Shown here piece after piece: positions 52,635-64,000 of a DNA stretch of 64,000 nucleotides (position 1 is its first letter; the number at the start of each line of letters is the position of its first letter). Origin of the DNA: Balneolaceae bacterium. GTDB lineage: Bacteria; Bacteroidota; Rhodothermia; Balneolales; Balneolaceae. Under the pieces are notes generated by a model. It ran no database searches, was not told where the DNA came from, and saw only the letters and a list, made by a program, of their open reading frames with translations. The stretch lies in NCBI GenBank assembly GCA_007134085.1, contig SLLL01000038.1, positions 21,555-85,554 of the forward strand, given 5' to 3'. The position numbers and the translations under genes are program-made.

Positions 52635-54965
52635 CTAATCGTTCTGCTGCCAGAATAGAATCGGATAGGTATCTGTGGTAATCCAGATCGTTTCCCAGTT
52701 AAATGCCGTCATTATCTCGGTTGCATCTTCACCCTGCATCTGCTCTGTAGTAAGGCCTGTAACTCCTTCAGTTTCTGCGTCAGTACCAGTTGCATTATCG
52801 TTGCCTGAGCTTTCAGTATCCCAATAAGAACCTGCAATTGTACCGTTTTTAGTACCTACAAATCCACCTGCTGCGATTATACCATCAACAGAACCTGTTG
52901 AGTAACTAAACTCAATCATTGCTGAAACTCCAAGATTCCCAACTAAACCACCCGAGTTTTCCTCGGTAGATGTTACTGAACCACGTGCGTAAGAATTTCT
53001 GATGACAGGCGCACCTGTTCCGTTTGAACCAACCAACCCGCCAACACGGTCAATTGCGGAAACACTGCTCGAGGAGAAAGATTCATCTACCAGGCCACCG
53101 GATACATTTGAACCAACCAACCCGCCTACTTCCGAGTTTCCTTCAACCGCTCCCGTAGAGTAGCTTCTGAAAATGGTTCCGCTGTTAATTCCTGTCAATC
53201 CACCTGTATCATCATTCCCATCAACTAAAGCTGTAGAGTATGAGATCATAATTTCTCCGGTATTTTCCCCGGCAAGCCCACCTGTATTATTGTTTCCAGT
53301 AACCGATCCCGAGCTGTAGGAGTCTTCAATCAAACCCAGATTTAATCCAACAAGCCCGCCTGTTGAATTTGAACCGGTAATTGTACCGCTGTTTGAGTAG
53401 CTATTCACAATTTCTCCGCGATTTTCACCGGCAATCGTACCGGTTCTGTCACCACCAGAGATTTGTGCGTCAATCAGGCCAAGATTTTCCACACGTCCGC
53501 CATCAATGAAGCCAAAGAGGCCGGTATTTGGTATATCATCACGGTTCAAGGTGAAATCTGTAATGGTGCGATTATTTCCATTCAGTGTTCCTGTAAACGG
53601 TTCAGCCTGTGAGCCTATAGGGAAAAACCCTTCACCCGAATTTAGTGTATCAGCTGTAGTACCATCAAGATCGTTTATGAGAATATAATTGGCGTCGGGG
53701 AAGCGGTTAATAAACTGCAACTGATACATATTACCAATCTGGTACGGATTTAACTGGCTGCCGTCCCCATCTTCAAAAACACTAAATATCGCAGTAATAG
53801 AGAGGTTATCTTCGATGGTAATTACATATGGGTTAGCTGTGGTATCGGCGTCGCCACCCCATCCTGTAAACCTCCAATTTTCTGCAGGGATGGCTTCAAT
53901 TTCAACCTCTGACCCGAACAGGAATCCGGTAGCAGTCTCCGTTCCGCTAATGAGTGTTGTGTTAACCGTTCCCTCGCCATCTGTAACAACATCGAATGTA
54001 AATTCCTGTCGCTCAAAGTTGGCAACTATCGTTTTATTGCCGTTCATCGTAAGGCTGAATGGGTTCACAGTTCCGGTAAAATCTCCCTCCCAACCGGTAA
54101 ATAGCCATCCTTGATTCGGCTCTGCGGTTACCTCAAATGTGGTATCGCGTATGTATCTGCCATCTTCAGGAGTAATTACCCCTCCCTCTTCGGGTTGCGC
54201 AACTGCGGTGAACTGGAATGTTCTGAGGAAGGTAGCGGTAACTTCTTTTGGCCCATCAACAGTTATAATGATGGTTGTATCAGCACCTGATGCATCCCCA
54301 GCCCATTCTGAAAATGCCCAGTCATCTTCAGGAATTGCCGTGAGCTGTACAGCTGTACCTGCGGTATAATCAGTAGTTCTCATTTGAACCACTTCCTGCT
54401 CTACATCCCCTTCACCCACAATGTTTACTGTTAATGGATATTCAATTCGTGTAAAGATACCTGTTACTTCAGTTTCGCCATCTATGGTAATGGTTGCAGG
54501 ATTTTCATCCCCTTCAAGATCACCTTCCCAGCGGTTAAACTCCCAGCCGGCTGCGGGTTGTGCCGTAAGTTCAATAGTGGTGCCGTGGGGGTAATCAGTG
54601 GTTCTCTGCTGAACTATTTGCTCAATAATTTGTCCTTCTCCTTCAGTAAGAAGCGTAAGCGGATAGTCTCTTTTTATAAAAATAGCGGCAATATCTTTAT
54701 CGGAATCAATGGTAATAATTACGGGATTCTCAGAACCAGTATGATCTCCCTGCCATTCGCTGAATACCCAGTTTTCATTCGCGGTAGCTGATATTTCGAG
54801 CGGCCTTTCGCGGTCGAATTCAACATTTGCGGGAGTTACCATACCACCCTCTTGCGGTACAGCTGTTATTGTGAGCCTATAAGTATCGTTATCGCTTGAA
54901 CCACATCCACTTAGAAGTAATGGCAACAGAAAAATAGCCCAGATAAATTTTCGCATAAAATGCAA
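52635..54965 (-). CDS. Surface lipoprotein with five divergent InlB B-repeat-like domains and a GLUG-motif region
   Basis: Lipobox LLSGC. Five ~70-aa repeats with A.P..GW.F..W.GD..G..NP..IT.D....A.F. Then GDGS..NPYQI and multiple GGL(V/A/T)G.N repeats. Confidence 0.85.
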   Translation of the reverse strand: MHFMRKFIWAIFLLPLLLSGCGSSDNDTYRLTITAVPQEGGMVTPANVEFDRERPLEISATANENWVFSEWQGDHTGSENPVIITIDSDKDIAAIFIKRDYPLTLLTEGEGQIIEQIVQQRTTDYPHGTTIELTAQPAAGWEFNRWEGDLEGDENPATITIDGETEVTGIFTRIEYPLTVNIVGEGDVEQEVVQMRTTDYTAGTAVQLTAIPEDDWAFSEWAGDASGADTTIIITVDGPKEVTATFLRTFQFTAVAQPEEGGVITPEDGRYIRDTTFEVTAEPNQGWLFTGWEGDFTGTVNPFSLTMNGNKTIVANFERQEFTFDVVTDGEGTVNTTLISGTETATGFLFGSEVEIEAIPAENWRFTGWGGDADTTANPYVITIEDNLSITAIFSVFEDGDGSQLNPYQIGNMYQLQFINRFPDANYILINDLDGTTADTLNSGEGFFPIGSQAEPFTGTLNGNNRTITDFTLNRDDIPNTGLFGFIDGGRVENLGLIDAQISGGDRTGTIAGENRGEIVNSYSNSGTITGSNSTGGLVGLNLGLIEDSYSSGSVTGNNNTGGLAGENTGEIMISYSTALVDGNDDTGGLTGINSGTIFRSYSTGAVEGNSEVGGLVGSNVSGGLVDESFSSSSVSAIDRVGGLVGSNGTGAPVIRNSYARGSVTSTEENSGGLVGNLGVSAMIEFSYSTGSVDGIIAAGGFVGTKNGTIAGSYWDTESSGNDNATGTDAETEGVTGLTTEQMQGEDATEIMTAFNWETIWITTDTYPILFWQQND

Positions 54966-55201
54966 ATTATGTTGTAATAGCCATTAATAATTTAACCTAT
55001 TTAGGGCTGAATGCACAATTGAAATTTTATAATGCTCTAATATTCATAAGTCCTGTCTTACTAATTATTTGCCTATATAGTTATAGCCAGTGAGCTCTTT
55101 TTACTTTTATAATTGCATTAACTGATAAAGTTATTTAACAAATGAGTTACAACCCTCAGAAGCATTTATAAAAAATTCCAATTAGATATGCAGGCCAGTC
55201 T

Positions 55202-57637
55202 ATGAGCAAATTGAGTTCTGAGCAGTGGCAGGCTGCACAAGATTTATTTCTTGAAGCAGTTGATCTTGAAGCTGAAGAGCAAGCTAAATTCCTATCTAAT
55301 CTTGAAACAGATCATCCCGAGCTATATACGGAGGTGAAAAAGCTTCTCAGGTCTCATAACGCATCTGGTGCTTTCTTATCCGGTACCGTACTTGATAATA
55401 TAATTGTTCAAACCGGAGAGCAAATTGGCCCATGGACAATCATTAAGGAGATTGGCCAGGGAGGAATGAGTACAGTTTATCTGGCTGAACGATCGGATGG
55501 TACATTTAGCCGAAAGGTAGCTGTAAAATTTCTGCACGGCCTTTCTCCCGATAAAAAAATGATTGAAAGGCTACGGGCTGAGCAATCCATACTAGCCAGG
55601 CTCGATCATAAACATATCTGCAAACTACTTGATGCGGGAATAAAGGATGCAGGCAGGCCTTATTTCATTATGGAGTACATTGACGGGCTACCAATTGACG
55701 AATATTGTAAAGAAAAAAACCTAAGTTTAGATGAAAGGCTTGCCCTGTTTATACAGGTTTGCGAAGCTGTTCAGTATGCACATAAAAGGCTTATCGTGCA
55801 TCGGGATATTAAACCTTCGAACATTCTTGTAGATGCAGAGGGAAATGTAAAGCTACTCGATTTTGGCATTGCCAAACTTGTTGATGAAGACCCTGAAATT
55901 GATATCACCAATACTAATACAGTGCTTTTTTTGATGACTCCAGAGTACGCCAGCCCTGAACAGGTTGAACACTTACCTATTACTACTACTACGGATGTTT
56001 ACTCCCTTGGGCTTTTACTTTGTAAATTAATCACCGATAAGCTCCCATATGAAATAGATTCAAAAACACCACTCGAAATCGGCCAAACAATTATACAGGC
56101 TGACCCTGCAAAACCAAGTACTCTTGTTACCGTAAAACCAAATGGTAAAGCAGCTAATACGGAAGATGAAAAAGCAGCATCACTCTATTTAAAACAAGCG
56201 CAGAGAAAATTAAAGGGCGACCTTGATAATATCATTCTAAAAGCACTTAGAAAAGAACCGGAGAGAAGGTACGATTCCGCTGGGCAGTTGCTTCAGGATA
56301 TTCAAAACTATCAAAATCATATGCCGGTAATGGCACGCCCCGAAAGCAGAATATATAGGGCAAAAAAATTTATTTTTCGAAATAAAACGGCTGCAGTTGC
56401 AGCCGGATTGATATTTTTAATATTGATAGGAGCAACCTGGATTTCTATAAATCAGGCAAATACTGCAACTGAACAGCGTTTAATTGCAGAACAAAGGTTT
56501 GATGATGTAAGAGAACTTGCCAACAGCCTCATCTTTGAACTACACGAAGAGATTGTAAACCTTCCAGGAGCCACAGCAGCACGTATTTTAATTGTTGAGC
56601 GGGCACTTCAATATCTAAGTGCACTAGCTGCTCACGAGAATGCTGATCTTACTTTAAAAATGGAAGTTGCCACGGCATACCGTGTGGTTGGAGATGTTCA
56701 GGGAAATCCTACAAATTCTAATCTTGGCCGCCATACTGATGCCATTACCAGTTACCGCTATGCGCTTGATTTAATCAACTCTGTACTTGATGTAGAGTCT
56801 GGAAATGTAGAATCAAGAAGAATTCTTGCAAACATACTTGAAAATAAAAGTGACGTCCTTAGTGCAATTGGAGAGCTAGAATCAGCAGAAGCGAATCAAA
56901 AACTCTCTAATGATATTTATAGAGAGCTTGCAGAAGAGTATCCTGATGAAACATCACATCTTCGTGAATATGCTATTTCACTTATCAAATACGGCGACCT
57001 ACTTGGCCACCCCTCTTTCATTAACCTCGGCAAACCAGAAGAAGCACTTGAAAAATTTAATATGGCCGAAAATTTACTGGATTTCCTATACGCTCAAGAT
57101 CAAAAAAATATTCTACACTTGAGATATATTGGCTTAATACATGAACGCCTTGGCAGGATGTTCCAGCTATTTGAGGATTACGACAAATCACTCATCCACT
57201 ACAAAAAATCTATGGAGTTTCGAACAATATTTGTGGAACGTAATCCCACTAATTCCAACGCTATTAGGGATGAAGCCGTATCTCATGAAAATCTTTCAAG
57301 AATTTATGTAAGCCTAAATCAACTCGAGAATGCACTGGAACACATGCAAATAGCATTTAATATCTATAAATGGCAGCATGAGAATGACCCTATAAATACG
57401 ATGGCTAAAATATCATATGCTATCAGTAATATTCACCTTGGAGATATTTCGCATCATGCAGATAGAACAAGTTTTAAAGACACAAACTCGGCTAAAACCT
57501 ATTTTCTGCGATCTAAAGGCCTGCTCGAATCAGCACTTGAAGCGGATACAACAAATGTGCGAACTCGTAATCTGCTTGACCTGGTGAACCGTCGCCTCAC
57601 ATGGATAGAAGGGCAACTGGATTCGTCTTCGGGGTAG
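55202..57637 (+). CDS. Membrane Hanks-type Ser/Thr protein kinase with an extracytoplasmic TPR region
   Basis: IGQGGMSTVY, VAVK, HRDIKPSN, DFG, MTPEYASPEQ, DVYSLG; TM helix AAVAAGLIFLILIGATWISI; helical repeats C-terminally. Confidence 0.93.
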   Translation: MSKLSSEQWQAAQDLFLEAVDLEAEEQAKFLSNLETDHPELYTEVKKLLRSHNASGAFLSGTVLDNIIVQTGEQIGPWTIIKEIGQGGMSTVYLAERSDGTFSRKVAVKFLHGLSPDKKMIERLRAEQSILARLDHKHICKLLDAGIKDAGRPYFIMEYIDGLPIDEYCKEKNLSLDERLALFIQVCEAVQYAHKRLIVHRDIKPSNILVDAEGNVKLLDFGIAKLVDEDPEIDITNTNTVLFLMTPEYASPEQVEHLPITTTTDVYSLGLLLCKLITDKLPYEIDSKTPLEIGQTIIQADPAKPSTLVTVKPNGKAANTEDEKAASLYLKQAQRKLKGDLDNIILKALRKEPERRYDSAGQLLQDIQNYQNHMPVMARPESRIYRAKKFIFRNKTAAVAAGLIFLILIGATWISINQANTATEQRLIAEQRFDDVRELANSLIFELHEEIVNLPGATAARILIVERALQYLSALAAHENADLTLKMEVATAYRVVGDVQGNPTNSNLGRHTDAITSYRYALDLINSVLDVESGNVESRRILANILENKSDVLSAIGELESAEANQKLSNDIYRELAEEYPDETSHLREYAISLIKYGDLLGHPSFINLGKPEEALEKFNMAENLLDFLYAQDQKNILHLRYIGLIHERLGRMFQLFEDYDKSLIHYKKSMEFRTIFVERNPTNSNAIRDEAVSHENLSRIYVSLNQLENALEHMQIAFNIYKWQHENDPINTMAKISYAISNIHLGDISHHADRTSFKDTNSAKTYFLRSKGLLESALEADTTNVRTRNLLDLVNRRLTWIEGQLDSSSG

Positions 57638-58007
57638 CTGCCAACTCATTTATCAATTTTAAGCAGTTAATTTGTGCTGGAATTCAATTCTACTAATGAT
57701 GAGAAGCTTAATGATTAACCGTTGCCATGCATACGGCAAACAGTATATTCATATTTACATGCTATCTGCAATTACTGAATTATGAATGAGACTCAGGTAA
57801 CAGTAGCTTTGAAAAACCAGTTTTTTTGGCCATGATCAAGGCCAAAGGGATTTTAAAACCGAAGCACATTGATTATATGTGAGGATTTTAAAGTCCCGAT
57901 AACGATGAGCTTTGGCAAAAAGACGGTTCTGCAAAGCCTCCTATCATTTTACCGGGACAAATAGTAAGCACAATTCAATATTGTAATTTGCTATAAACTA
58001 CCAAGCT

Positions 58008-59168
58008 TTAATTGTTTGGCCGAAGCGGGTTGATTGGCTGCCAGTTGCCTTGCAGAGAGCGATGATCGAAGGTGGGGTCGTTCGTGCCATAGTAATTACC
58101 CATACCATCAGTAAAATTGTATTGATAATGGCCTTCAACCCGGCGCTGGAACCCGGTGTGAGGGTCATCAAACGTACTGTATCCTGTTATCGCATCAAGA
58201 AACTGATCGTTTGAACTATATCCGCTGCCTGCTGATGTACTGCCGGTATTCCATGTCCCAAAAAAGTTTTCGCTCCATTGCCGGTTTTGTTCAGCAAATT
58301 GATTTCTCTGGGCCGCCATTCTCTGCTGGTGGTTCTGCTGGCTTTGTTGTTGATAAGCCTGCGAAATCTGCTGAACTCTTTGTGTGAACTGTGGATTTCG
58401 CTCATAACTGAGTTCTATAGCACTGTACGTCTCCATGGTTTGATCCAAGCGATTTTCAGGCGCCAGAATGAGCTGAGTCATAATCATCCCGTTTTGCCCT
58501 CCAAAGCCCATTGAGGGAAAATCTGATTTCACTATCTGAAACAGCCCATGCACCGGCCTGCCATTTCTGGAACCTTTGATTTCTATTTCCAGTGGGTCAG
58601 CTGGAAATCCAGCCTGAACCAGTTCATTGTATGATTTAGATCTTAACAGTGACTCGCTTCGCTGTAGACTACCTGTGGTTAGATTTTGAATCTCACCTCT
58701 TAAGGTATTTTGTAGAGCCCTTCTCAAAGCCTGATCAAAACTTTGGCCATACATATCTCCAAAAAGCTCAGAACCGAAAGTTCTGATGCTTTCACCCTCA
58801 GGGCCGCTGTATTCTGAAATATAGCGATCGAATGTGCCTGTTTGGGGATTTGTATAGATATCATACTGAAGGTTCCAGCTTGCAGGTATGGTTACCCTTG
58901 CCATCTCCATCTGTACTCCTCTGTCGAATATGGTAATCTGCTGCCCCCTTCCAGATCCAAAACGAGAGAAAAATGTGCCACTACGTTGGTTCTGAGAATC
59001 CTGTGATGGTTGCACTCCCTGCTGATGAGTCTGCTGATTAAAATCCTGTTGATACGCCAATTGGCTGGCAGGTTCATCATCCGGGTAAAACAAAATGATT
59101 GCAAAAATTACAACACCCACACCTAAGAGTACTTTCTGCTTGAGCGGTAGTTCTTTTATTTTTTCCAT
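58008..59168 (-). CDS. Membrane-anchored Gln-rich hypothetical protein
   Basis: N-terminal TM helix, two Gln-rich low-complexity tracts and a C-terminal DDPHTG..V.GHY.Y...D.MGNYYGTNDP motif. Confidence 0.8.
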   Translation of the reverse strand: MEKIKELPLKQKVLLGVGVVIFAIILFYPDDEPASQLAYQQDFNQQTHQQGVQPSQDSQNQRSGTFFSRFGSGRGQQITIFDRGVQMEMARVTIPASWNLQYDIYTNPQTGTFDRYISEYSGPEGESIRTFGSELFGDMYGQSFDQALRRALQNTLRGEIQNLTTGSLQRSESLLRSKSYNELVQAGFPADPLEIEIKGSRNGRPVHGLFQIVKSDFPSMGFGGQNGMIMTQLILAPENRLDQTMETYSAIELSYERNPQFTQRVQQISQAYQQQSQQNHQQRMAAQRNQFAEQNRQWSENFFGTWNTGSTSAGSGYSSNDQFLDAITGYSTFDDPHTGFQRRVEGHYQYNFTDGMGNYYGTNDPTFDHRSLQGNWQPINPLRPNN

Positions 59169-59335
59169 GATCTTTTTGATTCGATAATTATGATTTAGAT
59201 TATTGGCTTTCTCTCAAATGCACTATTACCAGCAAAATCAGCTCTATAAATTCCTTTTTTTCTAAATTGAGAGACACTTTTCTGATGCCCTGTACCTGGC
59301 TAATCTTTCCCAACGATTTAATTGGCACCACTAAA

Positions 59336-59371
59336 AAATAAAACCCCTCCGATATCACTCGAAGGGGTTTA
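59336..59371 (-). terminator. Terminator after the OMP/cytochrome gene run
   Basis: On the minus strand, AAACCCCTTCG-agtgatat-CGGAGGGGTTT followed by TATTTTT. Confidence 0.75.
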
Positions 59372-59496
59372 GTCGGTTCGCTTACTTAATAGATATCCAT
59401 GTTTAACTTGCTAAATGTTAAATATTATGAGACCCACTTAATTTGGCACCTTAATAGCATATGTTTTTATAAATTTTACGCAAAATAGATAACCAA

Positions 59497-59985
59497 CTAT
59501 TTCAGATAAAACCGAAAACCGGCAGCACCCATAAAGCTGAAAAAGAAATCAGGAGAAATATCCACATAAGGTGCTAATTCAAGAAAAATACCCAGTGGAG
59601 CGCTGCTAAAATCAGCGCCAATACCTATTGGGGCCCGCAGTGAAATTTCCAGGTCGCTGAATCCATAATCATAAAGTGCAATTCCAGGGCCATAGTAGAA
59701 GTGGAGAGAGCCTTCATCCCAGCTTGTATCATAAATTCGGTGCAGCAAAAAATCGGCTGTAAAAAAAATGTGTGATATTTCATCAGCAAAACCAAAACCA
59801 AGCCCTGCCGCAATTGCCTTATCTTCAGCGAGGTAGTATTTCATGCTTACGCCATACGGATCTCCAATAACACCACCAACTCCAAATGTTCTGTCCTGAG
59901 CGTATGCCTGATGAGAAAAAATTGTGAATGCGATAATTGCCAAAACGATAAAATGTATTTTTTTCATTTTACTATTCCCTATCAA
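59497..59985 (-). CDS. Small outer-membrane beta-barrel protein (likely start ATG at 59967)
   Basis: Signal peptide; alternating strands FGVGGVIG, FYYGPG, LRAPIG, IFLELAP, GFRFYL. Confidence 0.8.
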   Translation of the reverse strand: MIGNSKMKKIHFIVLAIIAFTIFSHQAYAQDRTFGVGGVIGDPYGVSMKYYLAEDKAIAAGLGFGFADEISHIFFTADFLLHRIYDTSWDEGSLHFYYGPGIALYDYGFSDLEISLRAPIGIGADFSSAPLGIFLELAPYVDISPDFFFSFMGAAGFRFYLK

Positions 59986-60104
59986 TTAATGAGTTATGAT
60001 TGATTTACTTCGTTAATTTGGAATGCAACAAAAAGTTTAACTTCAGCTCATTCTCTAATCAGAGAAGCTTATCTCATCATTTAGAACCACCATTATCGGT
60101 TCAA

Positions 60105-61316
60105 TTATTGATAACGGCCTTCAACAGCTGCCTTCGACTGCATAAACATTCTGTGATAATGCAGCTCATGTTCTGTAAGCTGATCTGATAAAATCGCCAC
60201 ACAATTTGTATCAGGCGCACATTCAGTGAACTGAAAACCTGGATCGGCCATCCAGCCAAGCCATAACCAGGGCAGTGCCAAATCCTGAAAAGTTTCTCCT
60301 GTAAGCCTGCGAATATGGCTTTCGGGTAAATTAAGTTCTTCGATAGTTGGTGAATCAGCAAAAAACTGCCCAATATCCCAGAATGGATTTCCTATTCCGG
60401 GATCTGTCCTGTTCAGATCAGAAAGTATCTCTTCGATAGAATTACTTCCCTGCTCCCCCTTTTCTCCTGATAATCTAAAACTGTGTTGAGCAATTAACTG
60501 TGCCTTGTATTTTGAGTAGGATAGAAAATCTAAACTACCTGCCTGTGTGGTAAAGTCTGACTTTGAAACGAATGATAGCAACTCCGATAGTTCCTTTATA
60601 CCGGCATTGGCTGTGTAAGCAAACTGTAATTCATTAAACAAGTATTCCCGTGAACCAGAAGGCCGGATTGGAGCCAATGGAAGCCAATCACCCAACATAC
60701 CGGCACTGCTGCTGTAATATGGATCTTCACTCCAAAGATTCATCCGAATGCCAACCGGCATGTCAAAAAGGTTTATCTCTGCCAGTTTCTCAGCTTGTTG
60801 ATGTGCATCTTCTTCTTTGTCAAACCAATCAATGAAGAGTATTAAGCCAATATCTTTAAGGAAGCCACCAAACTCTGCATCTCTTTCCTTGTTTGATTGC
60901 CCCTCGATTGGAAGCTCTCCCGGTTGGAAAGGAATCCATTCCCGGGGGTCAACAGAATCAAAACTGTACTTAACCTGTAATGCCTGAATCATGTTAACTA
61001 TATCTTCGAGTTTACTGGCATTTAGTGTTTCAATACCGGGCGCTGCATGTCCGGATCCTCTCCTTCTTATGGTGAAATTGCTGTAGTTCAATTTAGCGAG
61101 ATCTATCCCATCCGGTGCATGGCATTGAACACATGCTGCACCACCTGCAATAGCTCCCGGCATTCGCCAGGCTATTAAGCCTGTCTCAATTATCTCATTA
61201 AGTTCAGCTTCAGAAAGTGTATCATAATCAATTGATTCTATGTTTATGCTGCGGCTACACCCAACCCAAACTGCTGAGAGCGCTAAACACAGAATAATCC
61301 ATTGAAATACCTTCAT
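60105..61316 (-). CDS. Lipoprotein with a single c-type haem-binding motif
   Basis: Lipobox VWVGC; CVQCH (CXXCH) near residue 62. Confidence 0.7.
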   Translation of the reverse strand: MKVFQWIILCLALSAVWVGCSRSINIESIDYDTLSEAELNEIIETGLIAWRMPGAIAGGAACVQCHAPDGIDLAKLNYSNFTIRRRGSGHAAPGIETLNASKLEDIVNMIQALQVKYSFDSVDPREWIPFQPGELPIEGQSNKERDAEFGGFLKDIGLILFIDWFDKEEDAHQQAEKLAEINLFDMPVGIRMNLWSEDPYYSSSAGMLGDWLPLAPIRPSGSREYLFNELQFAYTANAGIKELSELLSFVSKSDFTTQAGSLDFLSYSKYKAQLIAQHSFRLSGEKGEQGSNSIEEILSDLNRTDPGIGNPFWDIGQFFADSPTIEELNLPESHIRRLTGETFQDLALPWLWLGWMADPGFQFTECAPDTNCVAILSDQLTEHELHYHRMFMQSKAAVEGRYQ

Positions 61317-61332
61317 CTCTTTTCACCTTAAA

Positions 61333-61953
61333 CTAAATCGGGATTCGAATACCTGCCCCAAATACAAGTTGATCGGCATCTCCGCCTAAGCCGGAGTATC
61401 GAAGCTCACCAAAAATTGCCCCGAAATTGATCAGATATTCTGTGCCTACGCCAATATTGAATCCAAACTCAGAGCTGCTCATTGTTGGTGCAGCGTTAAA
61501 TGGTGGCATAGATTGATTTTGCATTGGCGGTGGGCCCCCTTCCACAGGTGATGCCTGCATAAATAAATCATTACCCGGAATGAAAGTTGTTGCCCCGGAA
61601 AATTCTGCGGAGAACCTGAAATAGTTTATACCGGCCAGCCCATACACATTGATGGCATCTCTTTCCATAAAGATGTAGTGCATGTTTAGGTTGAACTCAA
61701 AGCGCTTCACTTTATCAAATTCACCCGATTCCGGGAAATAGAACCCAAGGTCTAACGCCCCTCTTACCTTATCAGTGAAAGAGTAGGTGCCATCTATCCG
61801 AAAACCTGCTTGTTCAGCTTCAAACCCATAAAAAAGTCCTCCGCCCACTGAAATTCCGGAACCTTCAGAATCACCGTTTTGTGCAATACCCTGCAAAGGA
61901 AGTAAACATATAATGAGTACTATTATTGATATTGTTTTTTTCATGTCGTTCAT
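61333..61953 (-). CDS. Outer-membrane beta-barrel protein with a Pro/Met-rich loop
   Basis: Signal peptide, amphipathic strands (VYGLAGINY, FGFNIGVG, LVFGAGIRIPI) and an inserted FMQASPVEGGPPPMQNQSMPPFNAAPTM segment. Confidence 0.8.
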   Translation of the reverse strand: MNDMKKTISIIVLIICLLPLQGIAQNGDSEGSGISVGGGLFYGFEAEQAGFRIDGTYSFTDKVRGALDLGFYFPESGEFDKVKRFEFNLNMHYIFMERDAINVYGLAGINYFRFSAEFSGATTFIPGNDLFMQASPVEGGPPPMQNQSMPPFNAAPTMSSSEFGFNIGVGTEYLINFGAIFGELRYSGLGGDADQLVFGAGIRIPI

Positions 61954-61968
61954 CAGTTAGTTTTATTT

Positions 61969-62616
61969 TTAGAATAGAATACCTGCTGTAATTGAAAACA
62001 CTCTGTTTTTTTCATCGCTTTCGATTTGGCTTTCAAAAACTGAGGTAATCCCAATAGTATATGAGGCACGCAACCTTATATTCAGAGATTCCCTTCGGAT
62101 AACTCCTCCCCCGCCAAGTATCAGGCCAACATCGGCCGCTCGAATAAATTCATCTATTTTGTCGATGTATAAATCATCTGCTTCATTTGCTTTAGAGCTG
62201 ATATTTACCGCGAGATAAGGCCCAGCGATTATCTGAGGATGAAAAGAACCTGATCGCTCAATTTCGAATTTGGCAAGAACAGGTATATCCACATAGTCAA
62301 GTTTAAGTGTGCCTGCATTTCCCGCATTACCTCCAGGTATGCCTATGCCTATCGGGGCACGATAAAAGCCTGTGGCACCTTTTTGCGAATAGTACGCACC
62401 TGTTTCAATATCAAATATCTGCCCCTCCAGTGGAATCTCTACCGATATTCCAGCCAAGAACCCTGTGCGGGATTCATAATCAATTTCAACGCCTGAAAAA
62501 TTGGCTATGTTAATGCCTGCATGAGCACCAAACTTCAGATTACTTTGTGCAACTGCATTCTGTATTGATACTGACAGCATCAGAATCAAAAAAAACACTG
62601 TAGATTTATTATTCAT
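61969..62616 (-). CDS. Porin-family small beta-barrel OMP (paralog A)
   Basis: FGAHAGINIA, YSQKGA, LDYVDIPVL, AGPY and a terminal Phe. Confidence 0.88.
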   Translation of the reverse strand: MNNKSTVFFLILMLSVSIQNAVAQSNLKFGAHAGINIANFSGVEIDYESRTGFLAGISVEIPLEGQIFDIETGAYYSQKGATGFYRAPIGIGIPGGNAGNAGTLKLDYVDIPVLAKFEIERSGSFHPQIIAGPYLAVNISSKANEADDLYIDKIDEFIRAADVGLILGGGGVIRRESLNIRLRASYTIGITSVFESQIESDEKNRVFSITAGILF

Positions 62617-62642
62617 CTTTATACGCGTTTATATGATTAAGT

Positions 62643-63329
62643 TTAGAATGTAAATCCCGCAGCTACCGTAAATACGCCATGCTTTTCGCCCTCATCAGAA
62701 CGGTTTTCATATACAGGGCTTAAACCGAGAGAATATCTTGCCTGCACATTCAGTTTGCGGCCGCTTATTTTAAAATCACCTCCGGCCCCAATTAACAAGC
62801 CAAAGCCGATTCGCTTTATCTCTGCTGATATATCTTCTATGTAGGCTATATTTTTACTCGCTTTTACCTCAGAATTGAGGCTTATATCCAGATATGGCCC
62901 GGCCAGTATGTAAGGTGAAACTGCTGCCTCTGTATCAAACCGATATTTTGCGAGGAGAGGTATTTCGAGATAATCGAGCTTGAATGTACCTGCATTGCCC
63001 TCGTAAGAACCTTTAATAATGCTCTCTTTGTAGCGTCCTTCGGCACCCTTTTGTGAATAGAACAGGCCCGACTCAAATTCCACAGGCAGCGATTCTGCTG
63101 AATACCCTATTGCTAACCCTGCGAATAGCCCGGCCCGGGTTGCTAATTCATGGGGGCCGCCATTCAGGTTGGCTATATTAAGCCCGGCTTTAATTCCCAG
63201 CTCTAAGCCACTCTGTGCATTTATATTAGTTGGTGTAATGAAGAGTAACAACTTGAATAAGAAGCATATTATCAGATATTTTCTCATTTTAGTTTTTATT
63301 GGTTTGAGATTTTTCCAGTTATCCTGCAC
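62643..63329 (-). CDS. Porin-family small beta-barrel OMP (paralog B; likely start ATG at 63287)
   Basis: LGIKAGLNIA, YSQKGA, LDYLEIPLL, AGPY and a terminal Phe. Confidence 0.88.
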   Translation of the reverse strand: MQDNWKNLKPIKTKMRKYLIICFLFKLLLFITPTNINAQSGLELGIKAGLNIANLNGGPHELATRAGLFAGLAIGYSAESLPVEFESGLFYSQKGAEGRYKESIIKGSYEGNAGTFKLDYLEIPLLAKYRFDTEAAVSPYILAGPYLDISLNSEVKASKNIAYIEDISAEIKRIGFGLLIGAGGDFKISGRKLNVQARYSLGLSPVYENRSDEGEKHGVFTVAAGFTF

Positions 63330-63526
63330 TCATTGCAGTTTTAGTTATTTGATAATGCAACAAATTGATCGATAGTAGCTCACTCGTTGAGTAATTGAAC
63401 AACCTGGCCGGTGTACTTTTCTCTTTCACTATTCTGTTTTTTTATTATTTTCGATGAAAGAATTACTGCGGGCTTACTTAAACTGTACCGGCCGTATCCT
63501 TACAGGAATGAAAAAGCTTACTTCAT

Positions 63527-64000
63527 ATGTCTGATGAACAAGGCGAATTAACGGCGCTTCTAAATTCACTTAGTGGGGATTCTGGAGCAATTAATAAAGC
63601 TCTGCCAATTGTGTATGATGAATTGAGAAATCTTGCCCACAGACAGCTTAGAGGTGAGCGTAAAGATCATACACTAAATACCACTGCCCTGGTTCATGAG
63701 GCATATATAAAACTCATTAATCACCCGCCTGACGGAGACTGGGACGGGCGGCGCCACTTTTTCGGTATCGCTGCCAGAGCAATGCGGCAGATTCTAGTAA
63801 ACTACGCTATGATGCGTAACCGAAAAAAAAGAAGTGGAAATTTGGGTATTCAACCATTTGAAGATGAAATTTACCTTTCAGAAGAGAAGGCAGAAGAACT
63901 TCTTGTTCTTGATGAGGCCTTAAAGGAGCTTGAGAAGCTAAATGAACGGCAGGGGCGCGTGGTAGAGTGCAGATACTTTGCCGGATACAATATTGAAGAG
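63527..64000 (+). CDS. ECF sigma factor, TIGR02999 type; runs off the window and is not in the ORF track
   Basis: Manual translation: MSDEQGELTALL...LPIVYDELRNLAHRQLRGERKDHTLNTTALVHEAYIKL...HFFGIAARAMRQILVNYA...LDEALKELEKLNERQGRVVECRYFAGYNIEE. Confidence 0.92.
   Translation, partial: MSDEQGELTALLNSLSGDSGAINKALPIVYDELRNLAHRQLRGERKDHTLNTTALVHEAYIKLINHPPDGDWDGRRHFFGIAARAMRQILVNYAMMRNRKKRSGNLGIQPFEDEIYLSEEKAEELLVLDEALKELEKLNERQGRVVECRYFAGYNIEE

Follow-up and report, generated by a model that had tools for sequence, protein, structure and literature searches.

The right-hand part of the window (the whole 64,000-nt stretch of Balneolaceae DNA analysed here, part of contig C244 in a 3.1 Mb assembly of 261 contigs, referred to below as G000) carries two regulatory genes on the forward strand, one for a receptor Hanks-type serine/threonine kinase and one for an extracytoplasmic function (ECF) sigma factor of the TIGR02999/ECF43 family. 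A Hanks kinase gene adjoining the sigma gene is a criterion of the ECF43 group, but here the closest kinase gene lies upstream, its end 5.9 kb away, and the interval is occupied by six reverse-strand open reading frames (ORFs). From comparison with related genomes we consider it likely that the kinase and sigma genes belong together as an ECF43 sigma system switched by phosphorylation, and that they have become separated.

The sigma gene (63527..64000, forward strand) continues for 90 nt beyond the window, to a window-equivalent end at 64090. Its full product of 187 aa matches TIGR02999 at 193.8 bits (cut-off 126.15) and PF07638 at 178 bits, with the in-window part alone reaching 145.8 bits against TIGR02999. 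Region 2.2 reads HTLNTTALVHEAY, with NTTA at N51-T52-T53-A54; an alignment of eight sigma orthologues shows both to be invariant, and reveals no conserved Ser/Thr in the linker. A comparison of the sigma factor with solved structures gave no sequence match. In ECF43 sigma factors, region 2.2 is without the acidic DAED patch, which contacts the beta-prime subunit of RNA polymerase, and carries xTTA instead; in EcfP and EcfK, phosphorylation of the second Thr of this motif by a kinase activates the sigma factor (PMC8999054, PMC13147305). The window sigma factor is a bona fide TIGR02999/ECF43 member with xTTA in place of DAED, and its predicted phospho-acceptor is most likely T53.

The kinase gene (55202..57637, forward strand) codes for 811 aa, comprising a 78-aa N-terminal helical extension, a kinase domain, one transmembrane helix and a TPR-like region that would lie outside the cytoplasm, in the periplasm. 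Pkinase matches residues 79-358 at 160.6 bits, and the catalytic motifs are all intact (Gly loop 85-92, VAVK 106-109, HRD 200, DFG 220 and SPE 251). The only hydrophobic segment is at about residues 396-416, and the C-terminal half is helical, with TPR_2 just above its cut-off at 29.6 bits and the remaining TPR matches below theirs. The best match among solved structures is PknS(1-364) of Xanthomonas citri (PDB 9EED), and the alignment takes in the N-terminal extension, residues 5-78 of the kinase corresponding to residues 5-86 of PknS. An earlier note on this DNA had described a transmembrane kinase with a TPR region at the left and a TIGR02999-type ECF factor at the right, and both identifications are borne out by these matches, the TPR matches being weak.

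The sigma gene has the outer-membrane protein operon before it and hisI and DUF2237 after it. The contig runs on for 8.3 kb beyond the window, where the order is hisI, DUF2237, a GSDH-type dehydrogenase gene, ccmF/E/D/C and a cardiolipin synthase gene. The earlier note had seen no anti-sigma gene, and this holds on reading further: none is present among the annotated neighbours on both sides, in the window and the 8.3 kb of contig beyond. Its caveat that the cognate kinase might lie just past position 64000 falls away, however, as the genes found there exclude both a kinase and an anti-sigma gene at that point.

Relatives of the sigma factor and the kinase

Orthologues and clade members were counted in a comparison set of 30 relatives. 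Seven of these (G102, G104, G105, G108, G112, G116 and G120) carry an orthologue of the window sigma factor, at identities that, in descending order, are 95, 85, 85, 75, 72, 68 and 60%, with paralogues at 51% or below. The earlier note had proposed a synteny survey; run on this set, it reveals that in G105, G108 and G120 (72, 68 and 60% identity respectively) the gene directly after the sigma orthologue codes for a kinase, and that these three kinases belong to the same clade as the window kinase.

The relationship is supported in three ways. First, the best match of the window kinase in each of these genomes is the sigma-adjacent kinase, at 815 bits in G105 (next 350), 727 bits in G108 (next 285) and 420 bits in G120 (next 295); in G105 and G108 the alignments extend over the full length, sensor domain included, and the best hits are reciprocal. 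Second, a maximum-likelihood tree of 28 kinases resolves one clade, with 100/97 support, that is separate from all remaining paralogues and consists of the window kinase with its close orthologues, the three sigma-adjacent kinases, and a sister group typified by a kinase encoded on contig C28 of G000 (KIN2). Third, kinases of this clade and the sigma orthologue are both present in the same seven of the 30 relatives, and neither in any of the other 23, though the genomes are kin, so that no independent-sample statistic can be attached to this co-occurrence. Because the window kinase shares a clade with the sigma-adjacent kinases, is a reciprocal best hit in two genomes and co-occurs with the sigma factor over the 30 relatives, we identify it as the predicted cognate partner of the sigma factor, displaced from it. 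The note's suggestion that the kinase at 55202 might be a second input gives way to this assignment.

Gene order in the relatives bears on how the pair came to be apart. In G102 the C-terminal end of the kinase is on one contig with the cassette of intervening genes and the sigma gene, in the layout seen in the window, and in G104 the kinase gene is on the contig and strand of the sigma gene, approximately 14 kb upstream, with a larger cassette in between. Around the adjacent pairs of G105, G108 and G120, the flanking regions have nothing in common with the window locus. These arrangements would be read most simply as an ancestral sigma-kinase adjacency that was broken up in a sub-lineage. G112 alone has a 213-aa ORF between the sigma gene and hisI (L032:10589-11230, contig C100); it was considered as an anti-sigma factor and rejected on its CX5R P-loop and a weak match to low-molecular-weight phosphatase/ArsC-like proteins.

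Within G000 itself the window pair stands apart from its paralogues. The genome holds an expanded set of seven TIGR02999 sigma factors and twelve Hanks kinases, and of the other six sigma genes (contigs C188, C172, C48, C45, C235 and C122) five have a kinase gene directly after them, while the sixth lies at a contig edge, before an ORF that starts with the kinase-type N-terminal extension. The six paralogous pairs thus keep the sigma-then-kinase adjacency, and the window sigma gene is the only one of the seven with no kinase gene directly after it. The paralogous sigma factors are 39-48% identical to the window sigma factor and show the same region 2.2 pattern, and most of their kinases have the same N-terminal extension as the window kinase. 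Before the paralogous ECF43 sigma gene on C122 (L006, about 820-1100) there is a divergent gene for a small secreted Gly-rich protein, and a sigma gene beside a small envelope protein gene may be a recurring layout.

A promoter-like motif and the genes it precedes

Alignment of the upstream regions of the eight sigma orthologues shows two 5-mers that are invariant, and constant in their spacing, in seven of the eight within diverged surroundings, 5'-TGAGC-N18-TGCAT-3', with TGAGCT-N16-(T/A)TGCAT as the extended consensus. With its two dissimilar hexamers separated by 16 nt, this consensus has the layout of the -35/-10 pair of a sigma-70-family promoter. A position matrix built from 23 sites, all of them in relatives, was run over the whole 3.1 Mb genome. 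Six matches were returned, at 23.7-31.1 bits, the next scoring 16.3 bits, and four of the six fall within 8.3 kb at this locus; by our arithmetic, the probability that four of six random positions lie inside one 9-kb stretch of 3.1 Mb is about 1e-9.

The top match in the genome (55091..55118, forward strand; 31.1 bits) is exact and ends 83 nt before the start codon of the kinase gene. The second (59218..59245, reverse strand; 29.7 bits) is an AGAGC variant with one mismatch, ending 49 nt before the gene for a Q-rich protein. A further exact match (60023..60050, reverse strand; 27.0 bits) lies downstream of the lipoprotein stop codon and ahead of the omp162 start, at a position that is also occupied in G102 and G104. 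The last of the four (63355..63382, reverse strand; 26.3 bits), again exact, precedes the omp228-omp215-omp206-lipoprotein operon and is invariant in seven of the eight orthologous loci; it sits in the divergent intergenic region and points to the operon, away from the sigma gene. The two matches elsewhere in the genome are 40-80 nt before lipoprotein genes on contigs C154 and C155, one of which codes for an NHL-repeat protein.

The motif is directional, since with TGAGC first a gene start falls between 70 nt before and 300 nt after the site end in 28 of 30 sites, compared with 16 of 30 in the opposite orientation. The exact pattern was counted in five relatives, where each genome has 13-31 copies of it and 1-4 of a backwards control; the count of 31, in G112, includes about a dozen copies of an unrelated repeat containing TGAGCGACTTCTCCCGATTGAACTGCAT, on some 12 contigs. 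A site lies upstream of each of the kinase orthologues in G102, G104, G112 and G116, and in G105 and G108 a TGATC variant occupies the short intergenic stretch that separates the sigma gene from the kinase gene. No copy was found directed at the sigma gene itself. Nor was any found near the six paralogous sigma loci of this genome, whereas the window locus has four.

Two other identities were considered for the motif and rejected. Read as an autoregulatory promoter toward the sigma gene (ATGCA-N18-GCTCA), it would fire antisense from the sites between co-oriented genes, and a sigma-54 promoter, suggested by TTGCAT, was ruled out by site inspection, there being no GG element at the required spacing. 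A literature search found no published ECF43 promoter motif in the papers accessible to it. A one-mismatch copy (AGAGC...TGCAT; 55011-55038, reverse strand) lies 46 nt before the divergent gene of an InlB-repeat/GLUG lipoprotein (52635-54965); its matrix score is low, no match above 15 bits occurs at that position in G102 or G112, and it is probably due to chance. Separately, five orthologues share a T-rich block (TTTTTTATTATTTTCG-like) approximately 70 nt ahead of the sigma start codon, at about 63440-63470 in the window and at matching positions in G102, G104, G112 and G116, which may serve as a housekeeping promoter for the sigma gene.

Loci rich in the motif have entirely different neighbours in different genomes, such as a beta-lactamase-fold protein and an FHA-trypsin protein in G108, and no genes but the sigma-kinase pair are common to the seven of them. 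Because this pair is their sole constant, we assign the motif, as a candidate promoter, to this sigma factor.

The genes between kinase and sigma are predicted to act at the cell envelope: each of the six ORFs has a signal peptide, a lipobox or a membrane anchor at its N-terminus, and three match outer-membrane beta-barrel families. The earlier note had listed six opposite-strand envelope genes here, in agreement with this, and had called them an outer-membrane protein, cytochrome and secreted-protein cassette. Its outer-membrane and secreted parts stand. The first gene of the four-gene operon, omp228 (62643..63329, reverse strand; 228 aa, PF13568), has its likely true start at ATG 63287, and is followed by omp215 (61969..62616, reverse strand; 215 aa, PF13568) and omp206 (61333..61953, reverse strand; 206 aa, PF13505), these three coding for outer-membrane beta-barrel proteins. 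The fourth codes for a lipoprotein of 403 aa (60105..61316, reverse strand) with a lipobox and one CxxCH(x)PDG haem-c motif, and it is this protein that had been taken for a cytochrome, a label for which we find no Pfam family or fold match. Pfam gave no match even at E = 10, and the AlphaFold model (pLDDT, the predicted local distance difference test, of 72; predicted all-alpha) has no fold match in the PDB below E = 0.1. Its family has nine members in a collection of 5.8 billion proteins, all hypothetical, of which those with a named source are from Balneolaceae, to which the family is restricted, and CxxCH-PDG is invariant in these nine relatives. The small secreted protein omp162 (59497..59985, reverse strand; 162 aa) has a signal peptide, a likely true start at ATG 59967, orthologues in G102 and G104 and no Pfam match; it is probably also an outer-membrane beta-barrel. 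Nearest the kinase, the Q-rich protein (58008..59168, reverse strand; 386 aa) has an N-terminal membrane anchor and matches no family, with homologues at the same position in G102 and G104.

The proposed circuit and its alternatives

In the circuit that we infer, with its phosphorylation, acceptor site, promoter recognition and feedback loop, the kinase would sense a periplasmic signal through its TPR-like domain and, once activated, would phosphorylate the sigma factor, most likely at T53 of NTTA. Phospho-T53 would give region 2.2 the negative charge required for RNA polymerase binding, and the active sigma factor would transcribe from TGAGCT-N16-TTGCAT promoters at the six sites in the genome. 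The predicted targets are the omp228-omp215-omp206-lipoprotein operon, omp162, the Q-rich gene, the kinase gene and the two lipoprotein genes elsewhere. Apart from the kinase, all are envelope proteins (four small barrels, the haem-motif lipoprotein, the anchored Q-rich protein and the two off-contig lipoproteins), which points to a putative remodelling of the outer membrane on a signal. The motif precedes the kinase gene but is missing from the sigma gene, and positive feedback is therefore predicted at the level of the sensor, with the sigma gene outside the control of this promoter and probably served by a separate one.

Several points weigh against this circuit, and we take them with the alternatives that they favour. 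The alternative that survives best is that the sigma factor is controlled mainly by a different kinase, which could be KIN2 or any of the ten remaining Hanks kinases, and that the window kinase has another substrate. KIN2 (C28:593-2953, L058) is co-orthologous to the window kinase and 54% identical to it over the first 426 aa, but its C-terminal domain differs and is strongly TPR-positive; copies are also present in G102 (C199) and in G116 (C204:1223-3559), the latter immediately following the kinase orthologue as a tandem gene. Besides falling in the same clade as the window kinase, KIN2 is the best match of the G120 kinase that adjoins the sigma orthologue, and with twelve Hanks kinases to seven ECF43 sigma factors in the genome, this co-orthologue included, the window kinase is perhaps not the sole input. 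However, only the window kinase resembles the partner kinases of G105 and G108 over their full length, the regulon motif accompanies it and its orthologues only, being absent from the KIN2 genes, and in G000, G102 and G104 it is linked to the cassette and the sigma gene on one contig. We therefore judge control by another kinase to be unlikely, while KIN2 is a better candidate for a second input than the window kinase.

A second alternative concerns the motif, which might be owned by another sigma factor or a transcription factor, its proximity to the sigma-kinase pair being coincidental or the result of a shared island. The motif does not resemble the usual ECF promoter, GGAAC/CGTC, it is tied to this sigma factor only by co-location across genomes, and the G120 pair lacks it. 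Most ECF sigma factors autoregulate, and this sigma gene is without the motif, so another regulator could in principle own it; in addition, the relatives hold more copies elsewhere in their genomes. Set against this, the neighbours of the pair are wholly different in G105 and G108, leaving no other regulator gene conserved at the motif-rich loci, the six paralogous ECF43 loci are without the motif, and two different 5-mers at a fixed 18-nt spacing and in fixed orientation before gene starts have the look of a sigma-type promoter. Ownership by another regulator thus appears quite improbable. That the sigma factor is active without phosphorylation, regulated only by its own transcription or stability, is very improbable: its gene has no autoregulatory site, and in EcfK mutation of the region 2.2 Thr alone does not abolish function, the linker Thr also counting (PMC13147305) and the T51A variant still functioning in X. 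citri, but here N, T, T and A are invariant in all orthologues where the polymerase-binding acidic residues normally sit, and the sigma factor has been inherited together with a specific kinase lineage.

A split, phosphorylation-switched pair is therefore the reading we prefer, and the kinase-to-sigma pathway over the cassette that had been suggested earlier finds support in the comparative evidence, phosphorylation and promoter use being predicted. A broader proposal, to which we give somewhat less than even credence, is that the kinase-sigma interval is a plastic regulon island, in which the regulators and the motif stay while the genes between them are exchanged among species, each bringing along or gaining its own promoter copy, with feedback via the sensor kinase and KIN2 possibly feeding the same sigma factor. 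Small barrels and a haem lipoprotein fill the interval in the window; G104 has three PD40 propellers together with NHL proteins, and G112 has a type IX secretion system cargo protein of 2202 aa. The G104 propellers are tandem PD40 beta-propeller paralogues between kinase and sigma on contig C300 (L031:6411-10632), each with its own copy of the motif.

Comparison with known systems

To our knowledge, the only phosphorylation-activated ECF43 sigma factors to have been studied in depth are EcfP and EcfK, both from Proteobacteria; a third, from Hyphomonas neptunium, has reportedly been shown to be kinase-activated. To these the window locus adds a Balneolaceae case in which comparison alone gives a full, testable circuit, with a kinase, a predicted acceptor at T53, four candidate local promoters and a small putative envelope regulon. 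It also illustrates that adjacency as the sole criterion can miss or misassign a cognate pair, which in this instance was recovered from clade membership, co-occurrence and a shared motif.

EcfK/PknS, which controls a type VI secretion system in X. citri (PMC13147305, PDB 9EED), has a sigma factor in the same family as that of the window, and PknS has the same architecture as the window kinase, with some 80 aa of N-terminal extension (reported as 83 aa in PknS), a kinase domain, one transmembrane helix and a periplasmic TPR region. Target genes adjoin the pair in both systems, predicted ones in the case of the window, but the EcfK and PknS genes are adjacent whereas the window genes are 5.9 kb apart with the targets between them. 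EcfK carries QATE and a second critical Thr in the linker, in contrast to the NTTA of the window sigma factor, which has no conserved linker Ser/Thr, and its targets form a secretion system rather than the small outer-membrane barrels and lipoproteins predicted here.

EcfP/PknT, which mediates the polymyxin response of Vibrio parahaemolyticus (Iyer et al. 2020, as summarised in PMC8999054), is closer in the motif itself, STTA in EcfP and NTTA in the window sigma factor both replacing DAED. Both systems are without an anti-sigma factor, and the switch is phosphorylation of the second Thr, as predicted for the window sigma factor. They differ in phylum, the window deriving from Balneolaceae, which are Bacteroidota-related, and in gene order, which is split in the window; moreover, the window promoter motif is proposed from comparison only. 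Taken together, these likenesses suggest that the window system is of the EcfP/PknT and EcfK/PknS kind, but with a split gene order and with the motif on the kinase gene rather than the sigma gene.

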